From an uncultured Candidatus Saccharibacteria bacterium (GTDB lineage Bacteria > Patescibacteriota > Minisyncoccia > Phycocordibacterales > JACOZG01), in the NCBI GenBank assembly GCA_965230925.1, contig OZ246403.1, positions 330,455-394,454 of the forward strand: 64,000 bases of DNA, read 5' to 3'. Positions 21,310-45,763 of this stretch are shown one piece after another. Both the position numbers and the translations under genes were made by a program. Each line of letters starts with the position of its first letter. The first letter of the stretch is position 1. Under the pieces are notes generated by a model. It had not been told where the DNA came from and did not search any database. It saw only the letters and a list, made by a program, of their open reading frames with translations.

Positions 21310-23445
21310 TTAATTCGTCAACTGAAACACCCCACTACCACCATATATCGTTTGGCCATTTACCACGGCCTTAAGGCGGAAGTAATAAAAACCGGGTGGC
21401 ACTGTGGCCAGACTCATGGATTCGCTGAAGTCATTGCTGGTGGTAAAGGCGTTGAAGTTGGTGGCGGGTTGATTGGCGGCAGTAAACAGCTCCATGGTTA
21501 AGTTTTGACTCATACCTACGCCAGTGGTAGTCCAGGTTACGGTGTGGCCGGTTTGATTAGACCAATTGGCATTGTATGTTGGCGAGGTGATGGTGATAAC
21601 TGGGGTTGAACCTCCGCTCCCACCACCCGAATTTCCTCCTGATGTCGCTGTAACCGTGAACCACGAGCTCCAACCTCCAGTCTCTACTCCACCAATAGAG
21701 GCAAAGATCCGCAAACGATATTGGCCAGAAGTGAGGCTGTTAGGAAGCGTAAGTGTCCCGCTACCGGCACTGTTCGTTGCCGTTGTGCTATACATCACCG
21801 TACCCGATTGATCCAAAACCTTTACATTAAGTGTTTGCGCTCCCGCGAGACCACTCGACACCCAACTGTAAACCACACTCGAACCAGGCTGATAGGAACC
21901 ACCACTCGGGTTGGTAACGAAGAGTGAAGCTGTGGGATTGTTTGGTGGAGGAGGTGGGGGCGGCGGAGGTGGATTATTACCACCAGTGTCACCCGTCAAC
22001 TGAAACACCCCACTACCACCATATATCGTTTGGCCATTTACCACGGCCTTAAGGCGGAAGTAATAAAAACCGGGTGGCACTGTGGCCAGACTCATGGATT
22101 CGCTGAAGTCATTGCTGGTGGTAAAGGCGTTGAAGTTGGTGGCGGGTTGATTGGCGGCAGTAAACAGCTCCATGGTTAAGTTTTGACTCATACCTACGCC
22201 AGTGGTAGTCCAGGTTACGGTGTGGCCGGTTTGATTAGACCAATTGGCATTGTATGTTGGCGAGGTGATGGTGATTGAAGGAGTAAAGTTGTTTGAGCCA
22301 CTATTCGAGGAAGAGTTGTCGTCACCAGAATCATCATCGGAAGCTTCTTCGTTCACACTAAACCAAGAACTCCAGGCTTCGCGAGTTTGCCCACCAAGAA
22401 CGGCGGAAACTCTAAATCGGTATTGTCCATCATTGAGTGAATTAGAAAGATGGAAACTCTTAGAGTCATTAGTGCCACTATCACTCTCCGAATCTACCGC
22501 CGATCCAGAGTTGTTGAGTAGTTGGATAGAAATAGACGGGTTGCTGACCGGCGAATTACTAATCTGCCAAGAAACAGGAACATAATCTCCTGGCTCATAA
22601 CTTCCCCCCGTCGGACTGGTCACAAAAACGGTGGGGGTTGAAGATTGATTGTTACTAGAAGATCCGGCTTCTGGATTAAGCACTATTTTCAACAAATGCG
22701 TGTCGTTTCCCTGAGGGATCGCCACAGAAAGTTGATTATCTTGGGAACCTTGTCGAGTGGTAGTAAAGCTGTGGAGCTCGCCAGTCTTGAGCATCACAGC
22801 CCTAACATAGCCGTTAAAGTCAGTGCCATATGTACCAATTATCGTATTACCACGCTGAATCTTCACTAAAGCACCAGGAATTGGTGAATTATTACCGCCA
22901 GCACGCACAACCCAAACATCTACCGCCCTAAAACCAGTAGTATTATTTGGCGTAGTTACAGCGGGAGCGTTATTACACCCATACAGCTGATTCATCTTGG
23001 CGCGGGTTGAATTACCGAAATTACCCGTAGGGTTGGTTAAGCCATTGGGGGTTAATATTTCACTTCGGTATTTGTTTTGGAACCAGTTTATCGCGAAAGT
23101 AGTAGCCACATCATATGAAAAACGTAATTGAGGATTTAAAGTAGCAACACCATTGTAGCCCTCAAATTTTAGCGCTTGATGAAGCCTGGCCACCTCCGTC
23201 CCAAAATCACTTAAACTCAAATTATTGTTGAAGGTGTAGCACCAGCCACCAGAATTAGCGCTACCCGACCCAGAATTTCCTGAACCTGAGTTGGCTTGCT
23301 GATTTTGCAAATTCTGTAACTGACTTTGCAAAGACGTAATTTGCGCCTGAATATTCGCAATTTGTTCAGCCAAAGTCTCGGCCGAAACTCCAAGAGGCAA
23401 AAGAAGAAAAGCGACCAGTAAACCGGCTAAAAGTTTTTTAAACAT
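21310..23445 (-). CDS. secreted surface protein: coiled coil, PG_binding_1-like domain, Ig-like repeats and a poly-Pro linker
   Basis: Signal peptide, then the QIANIQAQITSLQSQLQNLQNQ heptads, the PG-binding-like segment EVARLHQALKFEGYNG...TRAKMNQLYG, a PPPPPPPPPPP linker, and a duplicated 94-aa C-terminal module. Confidence 0.55.
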   Translation of the reverse strand: MFKKLLAGLLVAFLLLPLGVSAETLAEQIANIQAQITSLQSQLQNLQNQQANSGSGNSGSGSANSGGWCYTFNNNLSLSDFGTEVARLHQALKFEGYNGVATLNPQLRFSYDVATTFAINWFQNKYRSEILTPNGLTNPTGNFGNSTRAKMNQLYGCNNAPAVTTPNNTTGFRAVDVWVVRAGGNNSPIPGALVKIQRGNTIIGTYGTDFNGYVRAVMLKTGELHSFTTTRQGSQDNQLSVAIPQGNDTHLLKIVLNPEAGSSSNNQSSTPTVFVTSPTGGSYEPGDYVPVSWQISNSPVSNPSISIQLLNNSGSAVDSESDSGTNDSKSFHLSNSLNDGQYRFRVSAVLGGQTREAWSSWFSVNEEASDDDSGDDNSSSNSGSNNFTPSITITSPTYNANWSNQTGHTVTWTTTGVGMSQNLTMELFTAANQPATNFNAFTTSNDFSESMSLATVPPGFYYFRLKAVVNGQTIYGGSGVFQLTGDTGGNNPPPPPPPPPPNNPTASLFVTNPSGGSYQPGSSVVYSWVSSGLAGAQTLNVKVLDQSGTVMYSTTATNSAGSGTLTLPNSLTSGQYRLRIFASIGGVETGGWSSWFTVTATSGGNSGGGSGGSTPVITITSPTYNANWSNQTGHTVTWTTTGVGMSQNLTMELFTAANQPATNFNAFTTSNDFSESMSLATVPPGFYYFRLKAVVNGQTIYGGSGVFQLTN
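21317..21597 (-). repeat. 281-bp perfect direct repeat, copy 1 (second copy at 21995-22275), inside the surface-protein gene
   Basis: Base-for-base identical sequence, checked over the full length, 678 bp apart. It encodes the module ITITSPTYNANWSNQTGHTVTWTTTGVGMSQNL...GGSGVFQLT twice. Confidence 0.9.
21995..22275 (-). repeat. 281-bp perfect direct repeat, copy 2
   Basis: Identical to 21317-21597. Confidence 0.9.
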
Positions 23446-23480: not shown

Positions 23481-26400
23481 CTATACCACAATCTCGGGCG
23501 CATTTACTTCAGCAAAGTGGATAGCGCTTGACTTAGTGGCCTTTTTTAAGTCTTCAAGTAAAACAGTAGGAAAATTCTGGTAAACGCTCGGGAGAGTGGT
23601 CTGCACCACGTCTCCCGGCTTAAGACCCTTTTCTTTCCGTAAATCTTGAATTTCCCGAATCAGCTCGCGCAACTCCCCCTCTTGTTTGAGTTCTGGAGTA
23701 ATCGTGAGATCGAGCTCAACTTCTGTTGGTAAATTATCTACGAAAATTATTTCTTTTACATTTACTTCATCGCGAATGAGGGCGAGAAATTCTTCGGCCA
23801 AAGATTGTTTAATCTTGAGCGAAGCAAGCGGCTGACGAACTTTGATCCCTGCTTTCGTTCTGGCTTCAAGCGCGAGTGACACTAAGCGGCGCGTTTCAAT
23901 CATCATCGCGAGGATCGTTTGATCAAATTCTCTTGCAGTAGGCCAGTTAGACAAATGCACGCTTTCTTCATCGCTCAAAATTTTTACTTTCTGCCAAATG
24001 GTCTCGGCGAGGAAAGGCGTGAAAGGTGCCAAAACTTTTGAAAGTTTATGCAAGACATGGCCCAAAACCCGAATCGCATCAGCCTTGTCTTGCACATCAT
24101 CACCCTTAAAGCGCTCGCGCGAGCGACGCAAGTACCAGACTGAAAGATCGTCGACAAAGAGATCGAAGGGTCGAGCGGCAAGATCAAGGGTGTAATTATC
24201 GAGACCAGCTGTGACCTCTTGCCCCAGTTGCGCCAAGCGATTCAAGATCCAACGATCGAGCACATGTTTACACTCGCCAAGATCTTTCTCGTCCCCGCTC
24301 GCCTCGCCTTTATACAATTCATAAAAAGCAAGGACGTTCTCGAGGCGCATAATGACCCGACGCAAGACTTCTCCTAAACCTTTTTCGGAAAAGTTGAGAT
24401 CATCGCCGCGCATCGCCGGGGAAGCAAGCAGGTAAAGTCGCAAGGCATCAGCGCCATATTTATCGAGAGTCGGCTCAATTTCCGGATAATTCTTGAGTCG
24501 CTTCGACATTTTCTGACCATCTTCAGCCAAGATCAAACCGTTCACGATCACATTCTGAAACGCCGGTTTGTCGAAGAGCGCCACCGAGAGCACGGTGAGC
24601 ACATAGAACCAACCGCGTGTTTGGTCCAACCCTTCGCCAATGAAATTTGCCGGAAAATTGTGATCAAACCATTCTTTATTCTCAAACGGATAATGCGCTT
24701 GGCCATAAGGCATCGAGCCAGAGTCGTACCAAACGTCGAAGACTTCCGGCACCCGGATCATCTTCTCGCCGCTCTCATCCACCAGTTCTAAGTCGTCAAT
24801 ATATGGTCGATGAAGATCGAGCTCGAACTGCTCATTGTGTGGCAATGAAACAAAAGACAGCTCCCGCACTTCCGAATTCTTAATAAAATCTTCTGGCTTG
24901 TTGGCAATCGTCTGCTCATTAGTCCAGCCAAAAGCTCCGGACCACAACATCCAGGTTACATATTCATGCGTCGATATGAGAATCGTTTTGTTTTGATACT
25001 TCGTCTCGAGCTCATACATAAAGGCCATCGCGCGACGGCGCAAGTCGGCCAAATTTTCCCCACCTTCCGGCCGCTTCCACATCATTTCGATATAGGTCGA
25101 GAAAAAGTCGTGATACTCTCCCACCGTTTTACCATCAAATTCGCCAGTATGAATTTCTTCAATCCGCTCATCAAAGATAATTTTATCGAGCGGGTAACCA
25201 ATTTCCTTTGCCACAATCTCGCTTGTCTCTTTACCGCGAGTAAAGGGCGAAGAAAAGATTAGATCGATTTTTTCTCCCGCGAGTTTCTTAGCTGCCTCTT
25301 GGGTTTCCTTCACCCCACGTTCGGTCAGTTTGGCACCACTGTTTTGCTTACTACTTATAATCCCCGTCGCATTGTTTTCCCCATGACCATGACGCATCAC
25401 GAGGTAGCGATTGCCGGATTTCTTCACATGCTTTCGCAAATCTTCAACCGAGCCAATGACCACCACTTCACCGCTTGCTTTGCGCCAGACCGGTAGCGGC
25501 GTACCCCAGAATCGCGAGCGCGAGACGGCCCAATCGCGGGCACCCTCAAGCCATTTGCCGAAGCGACCATCTTTAATATGTTCAGGGACCCACTTAACAC
25601 TCGCATTATGCTTGAGCATTTTCTCCTTAAGCTCGGTAACTTTAATAAACCAAGAACTCGCCGCGTAATTGAGAAGCGGTGTCTCACAACGCCAACAATG
25701 CGGGTAGGAGTGAACAATCTTTTTCTTATCAAACAATAAATTCTTGGCCGCCAAATATTTGATAATCAAAATGTCGGTTGATTGATGATCATCCTTCGGC
25801 TTCACGTCAAGCCCCGCAAAATCCTTCGCTTCCGGTTTCATCTTGCCTTCCATGTCCACATGTTGAATAAACGGCAATTTATTCGCCTCGCCCAACTTCA
25901 TATCATCTTCACCAAAAGCAGGGGCAATATGCACAATCCCCGTCCCATCTTCTGTGGTCACAAAATCAGCCCCAAAAACTTCCCCTTCAGTGATGTAATA
26001 ATCAAAAAGGGTTTTGTATTTCTTACCGATTAGTTTTTCACCAGAAAATTCTTCAACAATCTCAAATTCTTTTTCTTTCAAAACGTCAGTAAGGCGCTCT
26101 TTGGCTAAAATATAATTTTCTTCGCCTATTTTTATTCGCACATAATTCGTACCAGTATTTACCGCGAGGGCCGCATTGCCGGGCAAAGTCCAAGGTGTGG
26201 TGGTCCAAGCAAGCAAATATTCCTTTGTTTCGGATTTCGAATTTAGAATTTCGAATTTTACATATACAGATATGTCAGTGATATCTTTGTAACCCTGATT
26301 CACCTCGAAGTTCGCGAGCGTCGTCCCACAACGTGGACACAAGTGCATCGATTTATAGCCTTCATAAACCAAACCTTTGTCCCAAAGAGTTTTGAAAACC

Positions 26401-26876
26401 CACCAACCGCTTTCCATGAAGCTCGGGTCCATCGTTTTGTAATCCCGCTCCATGTCGACGAAGCGACCGAGCCGCGGAATCACCCTCTTCCACTCATCAG
26501 CATAACGGAGCACACTCTCGCGCGCCTTCTCGTTGAAGGTCACAATACCTAGGTTCTCAATATCTTTTTTCGTCTTAAGGCCGAGTTCCTTCTCGATCAA
26601 ATTCTCAATCGGCAAACCGTGGCAGTCCCAACCCCAGCGCCGAAGCACGCGTTTACCCCGCATGGTCTGATAACGCGGGATCACATCCTTGAGCGTACTT
26701 GCGAGCAGGTGACCATAGTGAGGCGTGCCGGTAGCGTACGGTGGGCCGTCGTAAAACACGAAATCGCCGCTTTTTCCTTCAAGCGATTTCTCAAAAATTT
26801 TCTTGTCTTGCCAAAACTTCAGAATTTCTTCCTCTCGCTTGGCAACTTGAGACTTATTTATGTCCTTCTCAGTCAT
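23481..26876 (-). CDS. ileS: isoleucyl-tRNA synthetase (type 2) with an inserted histidine-phosphatase-like domain
   Basis: HIGH (PHYGHLLAS), the WCISR-like box (WAVSRSRFWGTPLP) and KMSKS (GQKMSKRL) are all present. About 195 extra residues between the WGTP box and the DVWYDSG segment carry histidine-phosphatase motifs. Confidence 0.9.
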   Translation of the reverse strand: MTEKDINKSQVAKREEEILKFWQDKKIFEKSLEGKSGDFVFYDGPPYATGTPHYGHLLASTLKDVIPRYQTMRGKRVLRRWGWDCHGLPIENLIEKELGLKTKKDIENLGIVTFNEKARESVLRYADEWKRVIPRLGRFVDMERDYKTMDPSFMESGWWVFKTLWDKGLVYEGYKSMHLCPRCGTTLANFEVNQGYKDITDISVYVKFEILNSKSETKEYLLAWTTTPWTLPGNAALAVNTGTNYVRIKIGEENYILAKERLTDVLKEKEFEIVEEFSGEKLIGKKYKTLFDYYITEGEVFGADFVTTEDGTGIVHIAPAFGEDDMKLGEANKLPFIQHVDMEGKMKPEAKDFAGLDVKPKDDHQSTDILIIKYLAAKNLLFDKKKIVHSYPHCWRCETPLLNYAASSWFIKVTELKEKMLKHNASVKWVPEHIKDGRFGKWLEGARDWAVSRSRFWGTPLPVWRKASGEVVVIGSVEDLRKHVKKSGNRYLVMRHGHGENNATGIISSKQNSGAKLTERGVKETQEAAKKLAGEKIDLIFSSPFTRGKETSEIVAKEIGYPLDKIIFDERIEEIHTGEFDGKTVGEYHDFFSTYIEMMWKRPEGGENLADLRRRAMAFMYELETKYQNKTILISTHEYVTWMLWSGAFGWTNEQTIANKPEDFIKNSEVRELSFVSLPHNEQFELDLHRPYIDDLELVDESGEKMIRVPEVFDVWYDSGSMPYGQAHYPFENKEWFDHNFPANFIGEGLDQTRGWFYVLTVLSVALFDKPAFQNVIVNGLILAEDGQKMSKRLKNYPEIEPTLDKYGADALRLYLLASPAMRGDDLNFSEKGLGEVLRRVIMRLENVLAFYELYKGEASGDEKDLGECKHVLDRWILNRLAQLGQEVTAGLDNYTLDLAARPFDLFVDDLSVWYLRRSRERFKGDDVQDKADAIRVLGHVLHKLSKVLAPFTPFLAETIWQKVKILSDEESVHLSNWPTAREFDQTILAMMIETRRLVSLALEARTKAGIKVRQPLASLKIKQSLAEEFLALIRDEVNVKEIIFVDNLPTEVELDLTITPELKQEGELRELIREIQDLRKEKGLKPGDVVQTTLPSVYQNFPTVLLEDLKKATKSSAIHFAEVNAPEIVV
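24822..25415 (-). other. histidine phosphatase (PGM/SixA-like, His_Phos_1-type) domain inserted in IleRS
   Basis: RYLVMRHGHGENN (RHG catalytic motif), FSSPFTRGKETSEIVA (SSPxxRAxQTA-like) and TILISTHEYV (second catalytic His). Corresponds to about residues 488-685 of the 1131-aa protein. Confidence 0.6.
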
Positions 26877-26905: not shown

Positions 26906-28645
26906 TTAGGGCAAATTTGGATCGTAAAGATAAATATCGGGATCACTCAAGCCGTGGCGGAAATCTTGCCACACAATACGCTCGCCGCTCACCGATGGCT
27001 TCGTTTGACCAGCCGAATTAATTGTAATCTGGGTAACCACATCAGAATCTAAATTGAGTCGGAAAACATCTTCATTGTCTGAACCACCTGCAATGCCTGA
27101 CCAAACCACCTGATTGCCCGAGATTTGTGCGTGTGACTCAACCAAGCTATCACTAGTAATTGCTTGCCCTAAGGTGCCTGGCGGCGTGGAGGTGCTAAGA
27201 GTAATTAAATAGAGATTAAAACCATTATTATCGGCCCTCTTCCAAACCAACTTGTTGCCATCTAGAGCTGGCTCGCCCACCATGGTTCCACCACCAAGAG
27301 GTAAAGTGATTCCGGAGGTTAATTGTCGCGCCGTCATCGGTGCAGCATTTTCCACATTCTGATTAGACCACACTAGCCAAGAGTCAGAAATTTTTGGATT
27401 TATTTTGTCCCCCGGACCAGCCGTGGCCACAATAGCACTACCAGAAACCAGGTTTAGAAAATGGATATTCCAATTACCGTTCCGGTTGTCTTGCCAAGCA
27501 ATCCATTCGTTCGAAATTGTTGGATACTGTTGCTCAAAAGAATTATTCGTAACATTAATTTTACCGAGATCCGCAAACCAGGAGAAATAAACATAAACAT
27601 CAGTCTGCCCCTCACTTATCTCCTCCCAAACAACTACCCAACCCATTCCCAGCTCTGGTCCAGGATAATCGAAACTTGATATCTGTGGTCTGGCGCGCAA
27701 TTCAGGCCCTTCACTCAGCGGCGTGGTTGATCCGGTTTGCAAGTCCCGCACATAAATAGCGTGTAAACCATTGGAAATATCGTGCCAAGCTACAAAATTA
27801 CCCGAAATATCTGGATCAATTTGGCCGCCTTCGCTAGATAATTGCTGAACATGTTCTTCTTCTCCTGTAGGAATTTCTACTTCGATCTGTCGGGGTTCAG
27901 TATCCACAGCACCACAGTTGTCGGTAACTCTAAGCGTCGCGTTATATATCCCCGCTTCGGTGTAAATATGGTTTACCACCGGTGAAGTGGTGGACGTACC
28001 ATCTCCAAACTGCCAGAGATAGGAAACGATTGTGCCATTAGCATCGCTCGATCCAGAACCATCAAAAGGAACTATTTCTCCCGGCTGTGAGTCAAACCAA
28101 TCATCACCCGGATCAGCAACTGGCGGCACATTATTATCGCAGGGATTAATTGTGGCCACATTTACGGTGAAATTGAGTGGAGCTGACACGGCACCACACT
28201 CATCTCGCACGAGAAGTGTGGCTTGGAAATTGCCGGGTGAAGAGTAGCTATGGGTAACCGTGTGTGCCGTTTGCCAATCACTCGAAGCGCCATCGCCGAA
28301 GATCCAAGAGTAAGCCGTTACCGAACCATCGGAATCTGGATCAAAAGAAAGTGAACCATTAAAAACAATTGGCGTGCCCTGATCGCCAGAAGGAACAGGG
28401 TTCACCCGAGCAACAGGAGGTTGATTTACATTACAAGTATTGTAATGAGGGACTAAAGAAGGTTGTTCATCGAAGGGAATAACTTCTAGTGGCACTTGCT
28501 GTGTGCCGCCAGGCTTAGTGTCGGGGCCAGGATACGACTTACCAAAAAGACCGGTTGGTGAAGTTCTTGAAGACTGAACATAACCCACAGCTAGGAGAAG
28601 AATGACGAGAAGAAGAATAGCGGAGAAGCGGCTTTTATCAGACAT
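26906..28645 (-). CDS. secreted protein with tandem PKD domains and a TolB/PD40-like beta-propeller
   Basis: Signal peptide. PKD motifs VFNGSLSFDPDSDGSVTAYSWIFGDG and FDGSGSSDANGTIVSYLWQFGDGT. Repeated (I/V)(A/V)WxD..nGnw.IY blades. Confidence 0.6.
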   Translation of the reverse strand: MSDKSRFSAILLLVILLLAVGYVQSSRTSPTGLFGKSYPGPDTKPGGTQQVPLEVIPFDEQPSLVPHYNTCNVNQPPVARVNPVPSGDQGTPIVFNGSLSFDPDSDGSVTAYSWIFGDGASSDWQTAHTVTHSYSSPGNFQATLLVRDECGAVSAPLNFTVNVATINPCDNNVPPVADPGDDWFDSQPGEIVPFDGSGSSDANGTIVSYLWQFGDGTSTTSPVVNHIYTEAGIYNATLRVTDNCGAVDTEPRQIEVEIPTGEEEHVQQLSSEGGQIDPDISGNFVAWHDISNGLHAIYVRDLQTGSTTPLSEGPELRARPQISSFDYPGPELGMGWVVVWEEISEGQTDVYVYFSWFADLGKINVTNNSFEQQYPTISNEWIAWQDNRNGNWNIHFLNLVSGSAIVATAGPGDKINPKISDSWLVWSNQNVENAAPMTARQLTSGITLPLGGGTMVGEPALDGNKLVWKRADNNGFNLYLITLSTSTPPGTLGQAITSDSLVESHAQISGNQVVWSGIAGGSDNEDVFRLNLDSDVVTQITINSAGQTKPSVSGERIVWQDFRHGLSDPDIYLYDPNLP

Positions 28646-38264: not shown

Positions 38265-38276
38265 GTCATTAAAAAC

Positions 38277-38331
38277 AACTCCGGGCAGGAAGTTGTGCCA
38301 CCAGCTTACTCTCCTTTTTACCCATTGTCAA
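38277..38331 (-). promoter_or_regulatory. candidate promoter (TTGACA-17 nt-TAAGCT) and weak hairpin/U-run upstream of secE
   Basis: On the minus strand: TTGACAatgggtaaaaaggagagTAAGCT. Then CAACTTCC.TGCCC.GGAGTTG followed by TTTTTAA, 10 nt before the secE ATG. Confidence 0.3.
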
Positions 38332-38356: not shown

Positions 38357-38914
38357 CTACTTCTGGCGGTGTGATTCTGGCGACACCTTCTCCGGCCCAC
38401 GATCCTTATACCGCGTAATGAAGCCACGCAAGCGGTCTAGACCATCCTGCCCCAGAGCTCCGTCGGTTAGGTCAAACTTATCCACTCGGGTCCAGGCCAC
38501 AATGGCAATATCTTTATCGTTCGCCGCTCGAGGGGTCACTATTAGCCAAGGTTCTTCAGCGCTAAGTGATTTCAGCTGGCTAATCACAGACTCAGACAAG
38601 GTGGGCCGATACGCGAGCCAAATTTCACCGTGCTCGAGGTTGTGAATAATTAATTCATCGGTAGGAGTGGTGTCGGTAGCATCATAGAAGCCGAGGCCAG
38701 CCGTCGTTTCTCCAATATGTGGCCCGGAAGATGGCGGGTTGGAATTATATGGTCCGTGCTCATCACCGAAGCCAATATGTTCCTGGCTCACTTGATCATA
38801 AGAAACGCTCAAGTCAGGAGAGTCCGGCAAACGATTCTGCACTCCCCGAACCAGAAGCCAACCTAAACCGACAATGATAACCAAAATTAGAACAATACTA
38901 ACAATTTTATTCAT
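38357..38914 (-). CDS. DUF3105-domain membrane-anchored protein
   Basis: Start at MNKIVSIVLILVIIVG. HNLEHGEIWLAYRP is the DUF3105 signature. It begins 4 nt after the upstream gene's stop, so it is in the same operon. Confidence 0.6.
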   Translation of the reverse strand: MNKIVSIVLILVIIVGLGWLLVRGVQNRLPDSPDLSVSYDQVSQEHIGFGDEHGPYNSNPPSSGPHIGETTAGLGFYDATDTTPTDELIIHNLEHGEIWLAYRPTLSESVISQLKSLSAEEPWLIVTPRAANDKDIAIVAWTRVDKFDLTDGALGQDGLDRLRGFITRYKDRGPEKVSPESHRQK

Positions 38915-38918
38915 TCTT

Positions 38919-40124
38919 CTATTCTGTAGGTTCAGGGGCCGGTTCGTCAACTGATTCTTCGGATGGTTCTTCCTCTACCTCCTCTTCTTCAGGCTCTTCT
39001 TCAACCTCCGTTTCCTCTTCTTCCTCTTCCGATGCTTCAACTACTTCCTCCTGCGGTTCTTCAGAAGGTTCTTCAACCTCTTCTTCTTCTTCTGTTTCTT
39101 CCTCTGCTACAACCTCCACCTCTTCAGTTTCTGGTTCAACAACTTCTTCCTCAAGTTCAGGCTGAATCTCTTCCATTTTTTCTTCTGGTGTTGTTTCAAG
39201 CTCATTCTCCGTATTACCAGCGCTTGAATCAATTTCTTTTGGCTTAACTTCTTCCACCCCTTCCGGCTCAAGTTTTTCTTCCGGTTCCTCTTTTTTCTCC
39301 TCAGTAATCTCTGGCTCTTCTTCTTTCACTTCATCCACTAGGTACGAGACATCGGCTGGAGTATCAAGAATCTCAACCCCCTCCCAATCAGATCGCTCAA
39401 AAATACATTCCGGCGCCTGAGGATTACGCTCTTCATAAAATTGATTGATCGATTTCCCCACAATCGCCGCGGCTACAAGCTCGCTCGGCGTCGGGTCAGA
39501 TAAAGTTAAAATTTCTTCAATTTCTTCTGCCGCTTCTTGAATAGTGGAGTAAACACCAAGACCAAGATGGTCGAAGGCGTCGCTACCCATATCGGCTCCC
39601 GCGAGCAAAGCATCTGGGTCGAGCCGACCAGAAACCAAATTTAACTCCAGCGCGAGACCATGAGCCTTAGCATAACAACGCGCGCCCTCCACCGTGTCGA
39701 CACTCGGGCATGGGAAAGAGGCGTGATCGTCAAACAAAACACAAATTTCATTACCCGAAATAGCGCCGAAGGCACCGGAAAAATTATTGCTTAAGATATT
39801 TACCTGACTCGCCCAAATATTTTCTCCTTTCCCACCGTCACAACCATCGTGATCTTGCCAAATTTTGGACGAACTGCTGACGCAAGCGCTCGCCTCCCGA
39901 TCAATCACCGCGGTCACATTGAGCACATGAGCCTCAAAAGCGGAAAGTTGGATGGAAGCGGCAAACACAATACCAAACGCCACCACCAGAGAAGGTAAGG
40001 TGAAGCGCCCTAAGATTATTTTTAAAATCGGGTTCGGAGCTGGCGCCACGTGAGGCAAAACGGTCGGAACAGAAACAATTTCTGTTTCCTTTTTCCTTAG
40101 AGCATCAACGTGTCGCCTGGTCAT
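38919..40124 (-). CDS. divergent TasA-like (SipW-cognate) secreted protein with a ~130-aa poly-acidic C-terminal tail
   Basis: Signal region ...AASIQLSAFEAHVLNVTAVIDRE shares the 'A.FEAHV.NVTA' motif of the four downstream paralogs. C-terminus is EEEPEITEEKKEEPEEK...EEEEVEEEPSEE. Confidence 0.5.
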   Translation of the reverse strand: MTRRHVDALRKKETEIVSVPTVLPHVAPAPNPILKIILGRFTLPSLVVAFGIVFAASIQLSAFEAHVLNVTAVIDREASACVSSSSKIWQDHDGCDGGKGENIWASQVNILSNNFSGAFGAISGNEICVLFDDHASFPCPSVDTVEGARCYAKAHGLALELNLVSGRLDPDALLAGADMGSDAFDHLGLGVYSTIQEAAEEIEEILTLSDPTPSELVAAAIVGKSINQFYEERNPQAPECIFERSDWEGVEILDTPADVSYLVDEVKEEEPEITEEKKEEPEEKLEPEGVEEVKPKEIDSSAGNTENELETTPEEKMEEIQPELEEEVVEPETEEVEVVAEEETEEEEEVEEPSEEPQEEVVEASEEEEEETEVEEEPEEEEVEEEPSEESVDEPAPEPTE

Positions 40125-40133
40125 AATTTATTT

Positions 40134-40568
40134 TTACTTTTCCTCGCGGAGGTTGTTGGCCGCCACCGTAATCGACCCCAAGTAAGGAATGTGAACCGGG
40201 TTCTTCCCCCAAGTAACGGCGCGACCCACCACGCTCTCATACTTCACCGGCGCATCGTTGTCGAAGTTGGCATCACCCTTGGTGGTCAACATTTTCTCAT
40301 CAAGCTCCACAATACGGTGAATGGTAAAGCCGGGTCCGCCCTCATTGCGAAACACAATTACATCACCAACCTTTAGCACTTCTCGCGGCACACCCTTAAT
40401 AAACACCAAGTCGCCTTCGTTCAACACCGGCCACATGGAGCCCGAAGTAATCGCCGCCATGGGGTAAGGCGTGTTTAAGCTCCAAGAAAGAAATTTAGGC
40501 AAGCCCCAAACAAGGCCGCCCACAATGACGATGTAAATGATTAAATTGAAAAGAAATTTTTTCATCAC
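40134..40568 (-). CDS. signal peptidase I, ER/archaeal (SipW-like) type
   Basis: N-terminal TM, then AITSGSMWPVLNEGDLVFIK (catalytic Ser box SGSMxP), then HRIVEL (His box). Small at 144 aa, as in SipW/Sec11-type enzymes. Confidence 0.7.
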   Translation of the reverse strand: MMKKFLFNLIIYIVIVGGLVWGLPKFLSWSLNTPYPMAAITSGSMWPVLNEGDLVFIKGVPREVLKVGDVIVFRNEGGPGFTIHRIVELDEKMLTTKGDANFDNDAPVKYESVVGRAVTWGKNPVHIPYLGSITVAANNLREEK

Positions 40569-41044
40569 AAGGTGGGAATCTTGAAGAGAAAGACTCGACC
40601 GTCGTAGGTATCGCCCACCACGGCGGAGGCAGGCATATAGGTGGTAAAGTTGATCTGAGCTTCTTCACGCGGAGCAAGGCGGAAATAATTTTTATCCGTT
40701 TTCATTAAGGTGCGGATACCGCCCGTCTTGAAGGTGATGATAAACATCGGAATTGGTGTGTCATTATCTATCGTTACTCGCCGCACGGCCGCTGTCCCCC
40801 GTGAGAGATCGCCGAAGTCGAGCGCCTCGTCGGTCGGATTAACCCCCACCTTCCCCTCGCCATCAATCACCTTCACCAAGGCTCGGTATTTATTGGCATC
40901 CAAGCTCACATAAGCGAGAAAAATGAGGACGATCACCAAGACCCAAAGAATAACCTTATCGAGAAGAGATAAGGGTCGGCCAGCTTGCCGCTCGAGCCAC
41001 TTGGTAATCTTCCACTTATTATTGATGATATTTTCTGTTTCCAT
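40565..41044 (-). CDS. membrane-anchored small beta-rich protein, candidate TapA-like accessory/anchor
   Basis: One TM (ILWVLVIVLIFLAYVSL) and an extracellular LDFGDLSRGTAAVRRVTIDNDT segment that resembles the LDFGTVFPQEH segment of the paralogs. Its stop overlaps the SipW start. Confidence 0.35.
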   Translation of the reverse strand: METENIINNKWKITKWLERQAGRPLSLLDKVILWVLVIVLIFLAYVSLDANKYRALVKVIDGEGKVGVNPTDEALDFGDLSRGTAAVRRVTIDNDTPIPMFIITFKTGGIRTLMKTDKNYFRLAPREEAQINFTTYMPASAVVGDTYDGRVFLFKIPTL

Positions 41045-41104
41045 AATTTAATTAATTGCTCTAACCTCCAGCCTACCACGCTTGGTAAGCCGGAGAAAGA
41101 ACAA

Positions 41105-41845
41105 TTAATGAATCCCCGTCACTTCAACCCACAAGTCGCAAGCGAAGGTCTCCCCCTCAAGCGCCGGCGGCAGTTGATACTGCACCGGATCACCAGCGTC
41201 AGGATTGAGGCCATGAACGAAGTCTGCCCAATCTTGAGCACACTCACCCGTGAAGCACGGCACCGCAAGATCCACATCCCAAGTATCAGATGGATCATTA
41301 CCAATCGTACTGCCACTCGAGCTGAACTTCACCATCTTCCCGGTCGCAAATTCAGTTTCCGGATCATGGAAGGGTGGTAAACCCACATCATTGTTCCTGT
41401 TCGCTCCGGTGCTCGGATGATTATCCGGATGCTTCGAGAGCGCCGAACACATCGTGGGATAACAATTGTCGTAGTACGGATCGCTTGGGTCATTGGCATC
41501 AGCTGGACTATTCAAGTGACACCAATCGCGCGCCGCTTCTGGTCCACCAAGGGTCGCAATCATGTTTTCCCTCGGGCGCGGCTTCTGCTTAATCACATAT
41601 TCCACCGTCCCCACTCGCGTCTGGTTAGTCGCCGAGAAAGATTCGCTGAAAGCGATGAAGAAGGACGTGAAAAGATGTTCCTGAGGGAAAACCGTGCCAA
41701 ACTGCAAAGATTGTGGGTGCACATAGAGCGCATTCTCAATCTTCGCGGTCACATTAATGACATGTGCCTCGAAGGCGGCGAAGAGTGGCGCGGTAATAAC
41801 CACCAGGGCTAGACTCAAGAAACCAACTAATAATTTTGTTTTCAT
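41105..41845 (-). CDS. TasA/camelysin-like SipW-cognate secreted protein, paralog D
   Basis: MKTKLLVGFLSLALVVITAPLFA|AFEAHVINVTAKIENALYV; C-terminus WDVDLAVPCFTGECAQDWADFVHGLNP...CDLWVEVTG. Confidence 0.55.
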   Translation of the reverse strand: MKTKLLVGFLSLALVVITAPLFAAFEAHVINVTAKIENALYVHPQSLQFGTVFPQEHLFTSFFIAFSESFSATNQTRVGTVEYVIKQKPRPRENMIATLGGPEAARDWCHLNSPADANDPSDPYYDNCYPTMCSALSKHPDNHPSTGANRNNDVGLPPFHDPETEFATGKMVKFSSSGSTIGNDPSDTWDVDLAVPCFTGECAQDWADFVHGLNPDAGDPVQYQLPPALEGETFACDLWVEVTGIH

Positions 41846-41861
41846 TAATTTAAGTTACTCA

Positions 41862-42692
41862 CTACACCGCATCAGTCGTAACTCCACTTACTTCTACCCA
41901 CAAGTCACAGCCCATAATCTTGCCGCGATTCTCTTGCGGCTGCACAAACTCGGCCGGAATTGCTTGCGGGTTAATACCGAGCACAAACTCTTCCCAATCT
42001 TGGGCGCACTGACCGCCGAAGCATGGTACGGCGAGGTCAATGGTCCAATTGTCTACCGTATCCTGCGGACTGTTCTTGGAAAGAATACCGTCGGCATCCT
42101 TCCAGCGAATCCAAGCTTCTTCCGTGATCCCTGGAGTGTTTGGGTTGTCGCCACCGAAGATCTTCCAAGGATGATGGAAGGAAGGCAAGGTCTCGTCATT
42201 GTTTGGCGTATTGTCATCCTCTTTGGAAATATATTCACAAAGTGATGGCAATACTCCCCAAGTCTCGTTCTCACCGAGTTCTCGCGGCGCCTCGCCGCAA
42301 TCGATACGATAATGCGTCTCGTCTTCGATCTCCGGCGTGCCAGGATCATCACCCAGAATAATGTGGCCAGTCGCGGTGTTCTGCGAATCAAACTGGGTAC
42401 CCTCTTCTGAAGTAATGGCGCACTTCGGCTTCTGACGAATGAAGTATTCTACATTGTCTACTCGAGTCTGACCGGCGTCTAAGAATGATTCAGACAAGCT
42501 AACGGCCATTGGTTTATCGAGATGCTCCTGCGGAAACACTGTCCCAAAATCAAGGGAATTAGTGTTTACCGAAAGGGCATTCTCAATCTTGGCTGTCACA
42601 TTAATGACATGGGCCTCGAAGGCGGCGAAGGCCGGCAAGAAGACCACCGCAATGGCTAAGCTCAAGAATCCCAGAAATATTTTGCCTTTCAT
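41862..42692 (-). CDS. TasA/camelysin-like SipW-cognate secreted protein, paralog C
   Basis: ...FLPAFA|AFEAHVINVTAKIENALSVNTNSLDFGTVFPQEHL...WTIDLAVPCFGGQCAQDW...GCDLWVEVSG. Confidence 0.55.
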   Translation of the reverse strand: MKGKIFLGFLSLAIAVVFLPAFAAFEAHVINVTAKIENALSVNTNSLDFGTVFPQEHLDKPMAVSLSESFLDAGQTRVDNVEYFIRQKPKCAITSEEGTQFDSQNTATGHIILGDDPGTPEIEDETHYRIDCGEAPRELGENETWGVLPSLCEYISKEDDNTPNNDETLPSFHHPWKIFGGDNPNTPGITEEAWIRWKDADGILSKNSPQDTVDNWTIDLAVPCFGGQCAQDWEEFVLGINPQAIPAEFVQPQENRGKIMGCDLWVEVSGVTTDAV

Positions 42693-42738
42693 GTTATTCG
42701 GTTATTACGGAATTTAAGGTAATTGAATCAACCAAGAG

Positions 42739-43569
42739 TTACGGGGCGGGTGTTGGATTAACTTCTTCTTCAACCTCATTCACGCCAGTGACTTCAAACC
42801 ACAAGTCACAACCAAACACTTTGTGTTCATTGTTTTTGTCCTGAACATAATCATCTGGATTGGCTTGTGGGTTAATTCCGTGGACGAAATCAGCCCAATC
42901 TTGAGCGCAGTAGCCACCAAAGCAAGGCACAGCAAGATCAATGGTCCAGCTATCAGTTTGGTCGCTCGGCTTGCTCATCATTCCGTTCACCTCCGTCCAA
43001 ACAATGTTCCCATCTTGATCAATCTCAAACGGTTGGTGGAATGAGGCAAGTGCACCATCTTCCCAAGCAATCGGCTCATCGGTTTCTTCATCCCAGTCAG
43101 TTGCTTCTGAATGCTTAGAGATGTATTCACACAAAGAAGGAAGAACTCCCCAATTAGCATTCTCTGGCACACCCTCGGGGCGAGTCTCCGGCTCTTCACC
43201 ACAATCAATGGTGTAATCACCTTCCGGAGTGCTGGTGTTTACAACTACGTGACCGGTAACGGTCGAGCTTTGATCAAAGCTCTCACCACCATCCCAAGTC
43301 CAAGCACACTTAGGCTTCTGGCGGATCATGTATTCCACACTCTCGACCCGATCCTCAGCCAAAAAAGAATCTGATAAAGTAATGTCTAACTTCTTATCCA
43401 AGTGTTCTTGAGGGAAAACTGTTCCGAAGTCTAAAGGATCAACTGGCACGCTCATGGCGTTCTCAATCTTGGCGGTCACGTTGATCACGTGCGCCTCGAA
43501 GGCGGCAAACATCGGCAGAACGGTAAATACCGCCGCAAGAGTGAGAAAGCCGACTAAAATCTTTTTCAT
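42739..43569 (-). CDS. TasA/camelysin-like SipW-cognate secreted protein, paralog B
   Basis: Same N- and C-terminal motifs, with a variable central region. Confidence 0.55.
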   Translation of the reverse strand: MKKILVGFLTLAAVFTVLPMFAAFEAHVINVTAKIENAMSVPVDPLDFGTVFPQEHLDKKLDITLSDSFLAEDRVESVEYMIRQKPKCAWTWDGGESFDQSSTVTGHVVVNTSTPEGDYTIDCGEEPETRPEGVPENANWGVLPSLCEYISKHSEATDWDEETDEPIAWEDGALASFHQPFEIDQDGNIVWTEVNGMMSKPSDQTDSWTIDLAVPCFGGYCAQDWADFVHGINPQANPDDYVQDKNNEHKVFGCDLWFEVTGVNEVEEEVNPTPAP

Positions 43570-43600
43570 TTGTAATTATTTTTAACTAACTAATAAGGAA

Positions 43601-45508
43601 CTAAATTGCGAAACCAGTTAACTCAATACCGTCTACGCGGAAGTACTCTGAATTAGCGTTGGAATCGTTATAGAACCGCAAAAGGAACGTGGTGTTTTCA
43701 AGTGCATCAGGCAAAGTCTCAGTATGAGAACTCCAGGCAGTGTCATCGGTTAGGTCGTGCGCCTCGAGTTCCATTGGACCACCCGTTGGTGCTGCACATG
43801 TTCCTCCAGTAAAATACTGCACTCTTCCTCGTTCTGGCCCACCAGCATCAGCATCTCCCCGCCAGTAGTAAGAGAGTTCGAGGTTTTCATAACCCGTTGT
43901 GTCTACCTGACGGCAAATCCAACCATCAACCCCATCATTTGGATTTTGATCTTCAGCAATCTTAACGAAGCGACCACCGTCAGGACTCACTGTATCTTCG
44001 CCACTCATCGTTGGGTTTACCCGAGTGGTCCCGATTTCATGCTTATTCCACCCAGGAACGGTTGCCGGATCACCGTCAGTGCCAAAGCTCTCATCGAGTA
44101 AAGTCTCTTCTACTGGGTCTTGTGGTGGCGGGTCGCCCTCACCACCCATGCCGTCACCATTCTCACAATTAGCAATCGCATCGAGCACAGTTTCCAAGTC
44201 GTCGAAGTCGGCCGCTGAGTAATAATGATCCGCTCCGCTCGCAATATTATCGCGGAGATAAGCGGCGGTGGTGTCATTAATACCATCGCCTACACCGACC
44301 ACGAAGATTTCTATCCCTGCGGCCTTAGCAGCCGTTGCGGCGGCAATACCAGCCGCTTGAGCTGCCGCCTCGCCACCAGGAGTATTCGGTTGACCATCAG
44401 TAATAATCACCATGAAGTCTGGTGACTCACCGTCTGGTCGGTCATGCATATCACCAGGATTAGCGAGTTCTCCGGTTGCGAGAGTAATTCCCTCAGCCAG
44501 ATTGGTGCTACCATCGCTATCCAAAGCGTTAATAGCGGCATTGATCATCGTTTCATCACTGGTCAAGTGAGTGTCCAAACTGCCACTAGTCGAGAAACTA
44601 CTCTGACCAATGTGCACACCATCCATTTCCGGATTAAGCGCTGTCACGAATCCTAGAGCCGCATCCTTAAGCGTTTGGAGATCGCCGCCAATACTCCCCG
44701 AGCGATCGAGAACAAGCATCACATCGGCTTTACCGGCACAGCCCACGCCGCCACCAGGCAAACTAATGCCACCCACCTCGAACCACAAGTTACAACCAAA
44801 AATCTTGTGTTCATTCTCAATCGGTTGAGTGTATTCATCAGGATCAGTAACAGTAGGATTGATGCCTGTTACGAAATCGTGCCAATCCTGCGCGCAGTGA
44901 TTGCCGAAGCAAGGCACCGCAAGATCAATGGTCCAATTATCCTCGGTGTCATTGGCTGATTTAGCCAAGTAACCAGGGGTATCGTTCCAATCGATCAACC
45001 CATTCTCGCCAATCGTCCAAGGCTTGTGGAAGGAAGCGAGTGAGCCATCATTGTCTGGAGTTTGATCATCTTCTTTAGAGATATATTCACAAAGTGAAGG
45101 GAGAAGGTAATCGGGACCTTCCTGTACACCGTCGGGCCGGTCAGCATCACAATCGATGTGGTAACCTTGCTCACTCTCATCAACGACCACATGCCCAGTC
45201 CAAGTCTCGCCCACCAAGGTCTCGCCATTATCTGTGGTTACTCCACACTTTGGCTTCTGCCGAATGAAGTACTCCACATCGTCTACGCGGTCTTCCGCCA
45301 TGAAGGAGTCAGAAAGAGCCACACGTACCGGCAAATTCAGATGCTCCTGGGGAAAGACCGTGCCGAAATCGAGAAGATCGGTGCTCACCGAGAGGGCGTT
45401 CTCAATTTTGGCTGTGACATTAATCACATGGGCCTCGAAGGCGGCAAACATTGGTGCAAAAAAGACCAAAGCAGCCACCCCAAGCAAACCAGCAAAAATT
45501 TTCTTCAT
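43601..45508 (-). CDS. TasA-like SipW-cognate secreted protein fused to a vWA domain and a C-terminal beta domain, paralog A (candidate adhesin)
   Basis: Residues 1-250 are colinear with paralogs B and C. Residues ~258-445 form a vWA domain with the MIDAS motif (VLDRSGSIGG ... T ... ITDGQPN). About 190 more residues follow. Confidence 0.6.
   Translation of the reverse strand: MKKIFAGLLGVAALVFFAPMFAAFEAHVINVTAKIENALSVSTDLLDFGTVFPQEHLNLPVRVALSDSFMAEDRVDDVEYFIRQKPKCGVTTDNGETLVGETWTGHVVVDESEQGYHIDCDADRPDGVQEGPDYLLPSLCEYISKEDDQTPDNDGSLASFHKPWTIGENGLIDWNDTPGYLAKSANDTEDNWTIDLAVPCFGNHCAQDWHDFVTGINPTVTDPDEYTQPIENEHKIFGCNLWFEVGGISLPGGGVGCAGKADVMLVLDRSGSIGGDLQTLKDAALGFVTALNPEMDGVHIGQSSFSTSGSLDTHLTSDETMINAAINALDSDGSTNLAEGITLATGELANPGDMHDRPDGESPDFMVIITDGQPNTPGGEAAAQAAGIAAATAAKAAGIEIFVVGVGDGINDTTAAYLRDNIASGADHYYSAADFDDLETVLDAIANCENGDGMGGEGDPPPQDPVEETLLDESFGTDGDPATVPGWNKHEIGTTRVNPTMSGEDTVSPDGGRFVKIAEDQNPNDGVDGWICRQVDTTGYENLELSYYWRGDADAGGPERGRVQYFTGGTCAAPTGGPMELEAHDLTDDTAWSSHTETLPDALENTTFLLRFYNDSNANSEYFRVDGIELTGFAI
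44174..44737 (-). other. von Willebrand factor type A (vWA) domain within paralog A
   Basis: DxSxS (DRSGS), a downstream Thr, and the DG...P motif typical of MIDAS. Confidence 0.6.
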
Positions 45509-45578
45509 ATTTTTTAATTATTAATATTTTAAATTTTAATCACTCGACCTTTTACCGGCTCTTCTTTAAACAGCCGAA

Positions 45579-45620
45579 CAAAAAAGCCCAAAGTCAATTA
45601 AGACCTTGGGCTTTTTTGTT
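45579..45620 (-). terminator. bidirectional rho-independent terminator (A-run, hairpin, T-run)
   Basis: aaaaaaGCCCAAAGTCaattaaGACCTTGGGCtttttt. Confidence 0.6.
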
Positions 45621-45763
45621 GAACTACCAAAGTTGCTGGCGGAGTAATCGTTGTAATCATTGCTTGGCCAACAACCGATTCCCCGCGGTTGTTACCCCAG
45701 ATTATAGGGGTGAGAAAAATGGTGTCAAAAGAGTTTTGGGCATTACCTGTGGATAACAAAAAT

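Follow-up and report, generated by a model that had tools for sequence, protein, structure and literature searches.

A conserved Patescibacteria operon encoding tagged secreted proteins with adhesin-like domains and their candidate signal peptidase

The 64-kb stretch of Patescibacteria DNA analysed here (contig OZ246403.1; called the window, to which all coordinates refer) contains an operon that belongs to a conserved four-part module with adhesin-like cargo. Its parts are secreted core proteins with a common N-terminal tag, a single-pass membrane protein of 159 amino acids (aa) that we call tm159, a SEC11-like signal peptidase and a tagged protein devoid of the core domain. We describe the gene content, synteny, tag, peptidase type, folds and passenger repertoire of this module, and we give an even chance to the view that it is a Patescibacteria-specific system for the assembly of surface adhesins or fibres, dependent on its own dedicated peptidase. 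Patescibacteria make up a large share of bacterial diversity, are mostly uncultured and are thought to live attached to other cells; type IV pili aside, their attachment organelles are, to our knowledge, poorly characterised. The tag and the peptidase together form a conserved, easily recognised marker, and the module provides a catalogue of candidate adhesin domains as well as testable predictions on the mature N-terminus, on peptidase dependence and on tag docking, which matter to those who work on the biology of the Candidate Phyla Radiation (CPR) and on surface filaments.

The operon and its conservation among Patescibacteria

According to the open reading frame (ORF) listing, the operon lies wholly on the minus strand and consists of eight genes, close together or overlapping, with a promoter-like site upstream and a terminator-like hairpin downstream. 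The preliminary description of this DNA had counted nine genes; its ORF coordinates and the one-directional arrangement agree with the listing. In the order of transcription the genes are:

43601-45508, minus strand: tagged core protein 1, 635 aa; signal peptide, AFEAHV tag, Cys-rich core, VWA domain with metal ion-dependent adhesion site (MIDAS), C-terminal beta domain
42739-43569, minus strand: tagged core protein 2, 276 aa; no Pfam or NCBIfam match
41862-42692, minus strand: tagged core protein 3, 276 aa; modelled with AlphaFold2 (AF2), pLDDT 90.3
41105-41845, minus strand: tagged core protein 4, 246 aa; from the ORF listing and the paralog alignment
40565-41044, minus strand: tm159, single-pass (N-in) membrane protein, 159 aa, untagged; extracellular PapD/ASH/MSP-like beta-sandwich
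40134-40568, minus strand: endoplasmic reticulum (ER)/archaeal-type signal peptidase I (S26B, Ser-His-Asp type), 144 aa; SGSMWP, IHR and KGDAN boxes
38919-40124, minus strand: tagged core-less protein, 401 aa; signal peptide, AFEAHVLNVTA tag, unrelated Cys-containing passenger, long acidic tail
38357-38950, minus strand: DUF3105 membrane protein, 197 aa; PF11303 match, 71.2 bits

A search of the GTDB species genomes recovered 75 loci besides the window. The order of core genes, tm159 gene and peptidase gene is kept in 58 of the 59 loci with enough downstream DNA; the number of core genes per locus varies from one to five. Directly after the peptidase gene, 37 of 54 loci have a tagged core-less gene by a strict motif, and most of the other 17 carry slightly variant tags on the post-peptidase gene. 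The strict count misses variants such as AFEAHVVDV and AFEASVVNVTA.

Nearly all 75 loci are of the Parcubacteria or Paceibacteria type (Ryan-, Vogel-, Wildermuth-, Giovannoni-, Doudna-, Uhr-, Azam-, Harrison- and Taylorbacteria). Four module contigs (L049, L053, L058 and L069) come from bins labelled Gammaproteobacteria or Bacteroidales and are probably mis-binned Patescibacteria contigs. The core family has 1410 members at 90% clustering and forms 616 clusters at 50% identity among 1.84 billion representatives; all organism-named matches in the 1410-member search were Patescibacteria.

The last gene of the operon had been listed earlier as an unexplained DUF3105 gene. The family assignment holds by the PF11303 match, and the gene is not a conserved member of the module, as only three of the 75 other loci (L011, L036 and L042) have DUF3105 close to the module. 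It is co-transcribed here and lies outside the conserved system. It overlaps or abuts the operon end here and in the Vogelbacteria-like locus L011, not in most loci. Its product has a transmembrane (TM) helix and an H-x-x-E-H-G motif, and a literature search on DUF3105 returned nothing useful.

The tagged proteins, the peptidase and tm159

The four tandem core paralogs (41105-45508) are 48-61% identical to each other, and their alignment confirms the common N-terminus, ...FA|AFEAHVINVTAKIENAL, and the common Cys-rich C-terminus, WTIDLAVPCFGGxCAQDW...GCDLWVEV, that had been noticed before. Among 51 aligned homologues six Cys are invariant and the tag is invariant or nearly so. The complete VWA/MIDAS domain attributed to the largest paralog is also present: PF00092 matches residues 262-442 of the 635-aa protein with 74.6 bits, and the MIDAS residues DRSGS, T (in GSTN) and D (in TDG) can be read from the translation. 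The C-terminal beta domain of this protein has a weak likeness to choice-of-anchor J, below the cutoff (choice_anch_J, E 0.0077). An FG-x-V motif at the start of the core domain may be akin to those of ASH and choice-of-anchor D sandwiches. The AF2 model of core protein 3 is a confident, complete core domain, in which the tag (residues 24-39) is coil with mean pLDDT values of 66 and 75 by 10-residue block.

Scans with Pfam and NCBIfam matched no tag or core family model, either with the full-length tagged proteins of the window or with 51 family members (E up to 10), and sequence and family-profile searches of the PDB found no solved relative of the core. Judged from sequence, the core family, its tag and the module are thus without a Pfam or NCBIfam model, and we found no description of them in the literature. 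Two other readings of the tagged proteins were ruled out: that they are lipoproteins, since no Cys lies close to the cleavage site, and that they are type IV pilins, the class III signal G|F(T/S)LIE being absent.

The tag logo, derived from 193 proteins from 76 loci, reads P-(L/M)-F-(A/S)|A-F-E-A-H-V-(I/V)-N-V-T-A-x-I-E-N-A-L-x-V. Position -1 is A or S, position -2 is F in 65% and position +2 is F or Y in 99% of the proteins, and 13 of the mature positions 1-17 are at least 82% conserved, a near-invariance far beyond chance. In the window the paralog tags are identical or nearly so in amino acids and differ by 5-10 nucleotides per 51, which points to purifying selection and not to recent gene conversion. 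From position 6 hydrophobic and polar residues alternate in the logo, so that the tag reads as an amphipathic beta-strand. The tag is modular, being found also on 40 core-less proteins, where Pro-rich linkers follow it. It includes an N-V-T sequon at tag positions 7-9 in all five tagged proteins of the window (e.g. 42596-42604, minus strand); among the 193 proteins the N is present in 100% and the T or S in 99%. The sequon is of the N-glycosylation type and may be merely structural.

The predicted cut after A/S fits the -3/-1 rule and places aromatic residues at P2 and P2', so that cleavage would occur between A/S and AFEAHV. In TasA, where these positions hold W (P2) and F (P2'), the two residues impede LepB and processing is by SipW (PMC10269814). 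The A|A site with an aromatic residue at both P2 and P2' is a genuine likeness to TasA.

The 144-aa product of 40134-40568 was proposed earlier to be an ER/archaeal-type signal peptidase I, and its TIGR02228 score is 90.4 bits, where the cutoff is 51.85. In the PDB it matches human SEC11A/C (E 2e-11) and nothing else, and the SGSMWP, IHR and KGDAN boxes, of the Ser/His and not the Ser/Lys type, are kept in 57 homologues. It is not a SipW equivalog, however, as the protein reaches 43.9 bits with the SipW equivalog NF046067, whose cutoff is 190. The synteny in 58 of 59 loci supports the claim that a dedicated peptidase of the ER/archaeal type is co-encoded with its likely substrates, and processing of the tagged proteins would depend on this enzyme.

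The 401-aa protein (38919-40124) had been taken for a fifth, divergent paralog. It shares the signal peptide and the tag with the core proteins; past AFEAHVLNVTAVI it has nothing in common with them, the core HMM does not match it and it is without the Cys-rich C-terminus, so that it is not a core paralog. The poly-acidic tail reported for one paralog is indeed seen, at the C-terminal end of this protein. Proteins of the same core-less class sit right after the peptidase gene in other loci, and the class carries at least four unrelated types of passenger after the tag and Pro-containing linkers. The 401-aa protein is a candidate for a tip or cap.

The passengers in 93 long tagged proteins are adhesin or lectin modules. 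VWA is found in 32 of the 93, LTD in 13, SpaA_2 in 8, CHB_HEX_C_1 in 6 and Fn3_assoc in 5; malectin, CBM96, CBM_4_9, Laminin_G_3, SdrD_B and beta-helix domains are also present. A larger version of the module occurs in three loci (L038 13243-16617, L045 13406-16762 and L048 3420-6821), in which the post-peptidase gene codes for about 1120 aa with the variant tag AFEASVVNVTARI and is followed by a further VWA-like tagged gene.

The AF2 model of tm159 (pLDDT 87.5) comprises a short cytoplasmic helix, a TM helix (27-49) and a beta-sandwich (51-157). The fold likenesses of the latter are with PapD/ASH/MSP-like immunoglobulin (Ig) domains, including the MSP domains of VAP and an enterococcal WxL-interacting protein, and no TapA chain is found in its top 60 fold matches. 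The preliminary description had placed a small membrane-anchored beta protein in a tapA-like position; the position, the TM anchor and the beta-sandwich stand, and the likeness is to PapD/ASH/MSP domains, not to TapA, of which tm159 shows neither the sequence or fold nor the SipW-type signal peptide. As hhalign finds no relation between the tm159 family and the core, tm159 cannot, by its sequence, be regarded as a shortened subunit. Residues Y45, D49, A50, N51 and K52, just outside the membrane, are invariant, and the stop codon of tm159 overlaps the ATG of the peptidase gene by one base (TGATG).

These features make tm159 a candidate for a base anchor, a tag receptor or a peptidase partner. 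The last role leads to a reading that we consider quite improbable, in which tm159 is an obligatory non-catalytic subunit of the peptidase, like SPC3 with SEC11 or TafG with TafD of the haloarchaeal Tafi system discussed below, and is neither anchor nor chaperone, the tagged proteins being released adhesins or exoproteins. The one-base gene overlap, the co-occurrence with the peptidase in 58 of 59 loci, the SEC11-like nature of the enzyme and the position of the invariant juxtamembrane residues, where the active site of the peptidase sits, all speak for such a subunit. Archaeal and SipW-type peptidases, however, are generally known to work without a partner of this kind, and the invariance of 17 to 19 mature residues would be left unexplained.

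Comparison with known fibres and possible modes of assembly

The preliminary description regarded the paralogs as TasA- or camelysin-like and aligned their cleavage region residue for residue with that of TasA. PF12389 matched neither the five tagged proteins of the window nor 51 family members (E up to 10). As a positive control for this model genuine TasA homologues were retrieved, all of which carry PF12389, and 47 of them were aligned. When the core family was compared with the TasA family by hhalign, the first alignment gave as its only match the N-terminal 48 columns, with a probability of 29%, and a more diverse profile of 138 cluster representatives raised this to 77% over 61 columns. 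After the signal peptides had been cut from both alignments the probability was 0.5%. The sequence likeness is therefore limited to the signal peptide and the cleavage site, and the 77% match, which arose from the signal peptides, was rejected as homology. The aromatic-A|A-F pattern at the cleavage site survives from the residue-for-residue alignment; the rest of it does not, and by sequence the mature domains are not detectable relatives of TasA/camelysin.

TIGR04088 likewise matched neither the full-length proteins nor, at E up to 10, the first 60 residues of three of the window's five tagged proteins. Of the claim that the signal peptides are SipW-cognate, what holds is the co-encoded archaeal-type peptidase and the aromatic P2' (F/Y in 99%). 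By membership, the proteins of the module fall outside PF12389, TIGR04088, the SipW equivalog and TapA, and within the ER/archaeal-type signal peptidase I and VWA families.

Structure comparison gave fold-level scores, as compatible with a TasA-like core as with another. A Foldseek search of the PDB with the AF2 model of core protein 3 returned no match with E <= 1e-3. The upper part of the list, non-significant throughout, includes several filament subunits of the strand-complemented type, among them the cannula 9h8b (E 0.056), FimA, PapA and AggA; the TasA fibre 8aur came at rank 11 (E 0.26, TM-score 0.24), and TasA itself was outside the top 60. That the core proteins are true but much-diverged subunits of the TasA superfamily, with a jelly-roll fold and donor-strand complementation, is in our opinion unlikely. 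The presence of cannula, FimA, PapA, AggA and TasA fibre subunits in the Foldseek list, all of them non-significant, would fit such an origin, as would the TasA-like cleavage site with a dedicated archaeal-type peptidase and the hhalign value of 77% with signal peptides included. It is opposed by the lack of PF12389 and TIGR04088 matches in 51 members, by the fall to 0.5% on signal-peptide removal and perhaps by the FG-x-V motif, with its possible kinship to ASH and choice-of-anchor D sandwiches.

The system had also been thought undescribed in Patescibacteria. An AnnoTree survey had already noted PF12389 homologues there (PMC9245690), and the presence of TasA-like proteins in CPR is therefore no novelty in itself; the core family found here is a different and undescribed one. 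That remark was the only result of our literature search for SipW or archaeal-type signal peptidases or donor strands in CPR, Parcubacteria or Patescibacteria.

By analogy, the operon may be of the same kind, in function and layout, as tapA-sipW-tasA and Tafi, the resemblance being one of layout only. The tapA-sipW-tasA operon of Bacillus subtilis produces TasA fibres by donor-strand exchange (PMC9674648, PMC10151520). Like it, the operon in the window encodes an ER/archaeal-type peptidase among its own secreted substrates, with an A|A cleavage site flanked by aromatics at P2 and P2' and the gene of a small accessory protein adjoining that of the peptidase, and a surface fibre or adhesion is the function proposed here. 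In contrast, the mature proteins have no PF12389 or TIGR04088 match or profile similarity, the core is Cys-rich with six invariant Cys and several paralogs bear plug-in adhesin domains, the accessory protein is a TM-anchored PapD-like domain and not TapA, the tag far exceeds the A-F-N-D of TasA in length and conservation, and the peptidase is well below the SipW equivalog cutoff.

The haloarchaeal Tat-fimbriae (Tafi) are built from the pilins TafA and TafE, a TafC tip and the membrane anchor TafF, and the peptidase TafD has been shown to be required (PMC11821415, PMC12337348). Tafi has several Ig-like subunits with an N-terminal donor strand, and the tag is proposed as such a strand here. The other members of its cast are a single tip protein that bears a lectin-type domain, a membrane protein whose subunit-like beta domain makes it the proposed anchor, and a dedicated Ser/His signal peptidase encoded in the locus; the module appears to have the same cast. 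Tafi differs in being archaeal and mostly Tat-dependent, whereas the system described here is bacterial with Sec-type signal peptides, no RR motif being visible in the tagged N-termini; TafG (DUF5305) and the TafB regulator are absent here. The likeness to Tafi is one of architecture only: the core family profile matched nothing in the PDB, and the AFEAHV tag has no equivalent outside this family.

Chaperone-usher pili, with PapD/FimC chaperones and FimA/PapA subunits, are also among the closest known systems, as are the sortase-assembled pili of Gram-positive bacteria, with a SpaA-type shaft and a VWA tip adhesin. With the latter the module has in common a VWA-bearing subunit, the SpaA_2 prealbumin-like domains of its relatives and a dedicated processing enzyme encoded in the operon. 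However, no sortase, LPXTG or pilin motif is found here, the processing signal sits at the N-terminus and a signal peptidase takes the place of a sortase. A search for the sortase motif TLxTC gave no in-ORF match (only two out-of-frame artefacts on the opposite strand), there is no other processing enzyme in the operon, and the C-termini are without LPXTG.

On the reading that we prefer, tagged preproteins would be exported by Sec and cut by the operon peptidase between A/S and AFEAHV, at a site whose aromatic P2 and P2' would make it poor for a LepB-type enzyme. The cut would free the tag as a new N-terminal amphipathic beta-strand, which would dock by strand addition to a neighbouring core, to the PapD-like domain of tm159, or to both. 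Such docking and polymerisation would yield a short heteropolymeric fibre anchored in the membrane. Its base would be tm159, a strand acceptor with none to give, and its distal cap or tip the core-less tagged protein, which is a strand donor only. The VWA and lectin-type domains would act as adhesins, plausibly toward host cells or surfaces. The earlier idea of a fibre-and-adhesin attachment system, taken overall, fits the evidence, without the TasA membership (PF12389 unmatched) on which it was based.

A more specific version of this mechanism, which we put forward tentatively and as possible rather than probable, is that the module represents an undescribed class of bacterial filament. In this class AFEAHVxNVTAxIENAL would be a plug-in donor strand exposed by a SEC11-like peptidase, with shaft, adhesins and core-less tip on a tm159 base, confined to Paceibacteria-type CPR and serving host attachment. 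If true, chaperone-usher and Tafi pili would have in it a counterpart from monoderms that works without an usher. The module would extend the logic of TasA and Tafi, a dedicated archaeal-type peptidase with strand-tagged subunits, to a third, unrelated protein family, and would bear on how often such fibres arose independently.

Several points weigh against an assembled fibre that depends on the operon peptidase. The predicted site meets the ordinary -3/-1 rule, so that a housekeeping peptidase could cut the tagged proteins. AF2 often folds the donor strand of true donor-strand pilins back into the groove; in the model of core protein 3 the core is complete and the tag is not folded back. No significant sequence or structure link to proven donor-strand filament subunits was found by PDB profile search, Foldseek or hhalign, and polymerisation is our inference. 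The overlap of the genes means that tm159 could be a mere accessory subunit of the peptidase, and the SEC11 of the ER needs the single-pass SPC3. As far as we know, these genomes all come from uncultured organisms.

A rather doubtful alternative is display without polymerisation, in which the tag is a sorting or retention signal and each protein is held singly, through its N-terminal strand, on the PapD-like domain of tm159, as a non-covalent counterpart of sortase anchoring and with no fibre. This would account for the presence of the tag on unrelated passengers, for the resemblance of the strictly co-inherited tm159 to peptide-binding domains of the MSP/PapD/WxLIP type, and for an AF2 core that looks complete without an added strand. 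It fits less well with one tm159 gene against two to six tagged genes. A single core-less tagged gene at a fixed position together with several near-identical core paralogs is the typical pattern of a shaft-plus-tip pilus operon, and the core, which is kept in paralogs whose passengers differ, would seem to have an assembly role of its own.

Transcription signals and gene neighbourhood

The following signals were predicted around the operon:

45701-45728, minus strand: sigma-70-like promoter (predicted), TTGACA-16-TATAAT, 12/12 match to the consensus, about 190 nt 5' of the first gene
45577-45620, minus strand: terminator-like leader hairpin, perfect 19 bp, A-tract before and U-tract after, between the promoter and the first ATG
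38275-38296, minus strand: terminator-like hairpin closing the operon, preceding secE-nusG-rplK

The operon leader RNA folds with z = -6.2 relative to shuffles. Attenuation is one possible role of the leader hairpin; it could also end a short transcript or terminate the upstream Gmad2 gene, and in the last case the real operon promoter would lie downstream of the hairpin. Its A-tract and U-tract flanks give it the look of a bidirectional terminator. tRNA and Rfam scans of the window gave no matches, the leader hairpin included.

The operon is flanked by the Gmad2 gene upstream and by secE-nusG-rplK downstream. No tagged protein is encoded outside the operon in the window, the rest of which consists of housekeeping genes, chiefly those of aminoacyl-tRNA synthetases. 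Two ORFs on the minus strand, at about 55621 and 57639, open with the class III signal of type IV pilins (K/S-GFTLIELL...), so that the genome also codes for type IV pilins, separate from the operon. Two likely surface proteins are encoded on the minus strand among the aminoacyl-tRNA synthetase genes, a DUF11 protein of 642 aa (18837-20765) and a 579-aa protein with two PKD domains (26906-28645); a 711-aa ORF without annotation lies at 21310-23445. The 1131-aa IleRS-like class I tRNA synthetase (tRNA-synt_1 and Anticodon_1) at 23481-26876, minus strand, has its catalytic domain split in two by a histidine-phosphatase domain (His_Phos_1, E 8e-31) that occupies residues 492-655.

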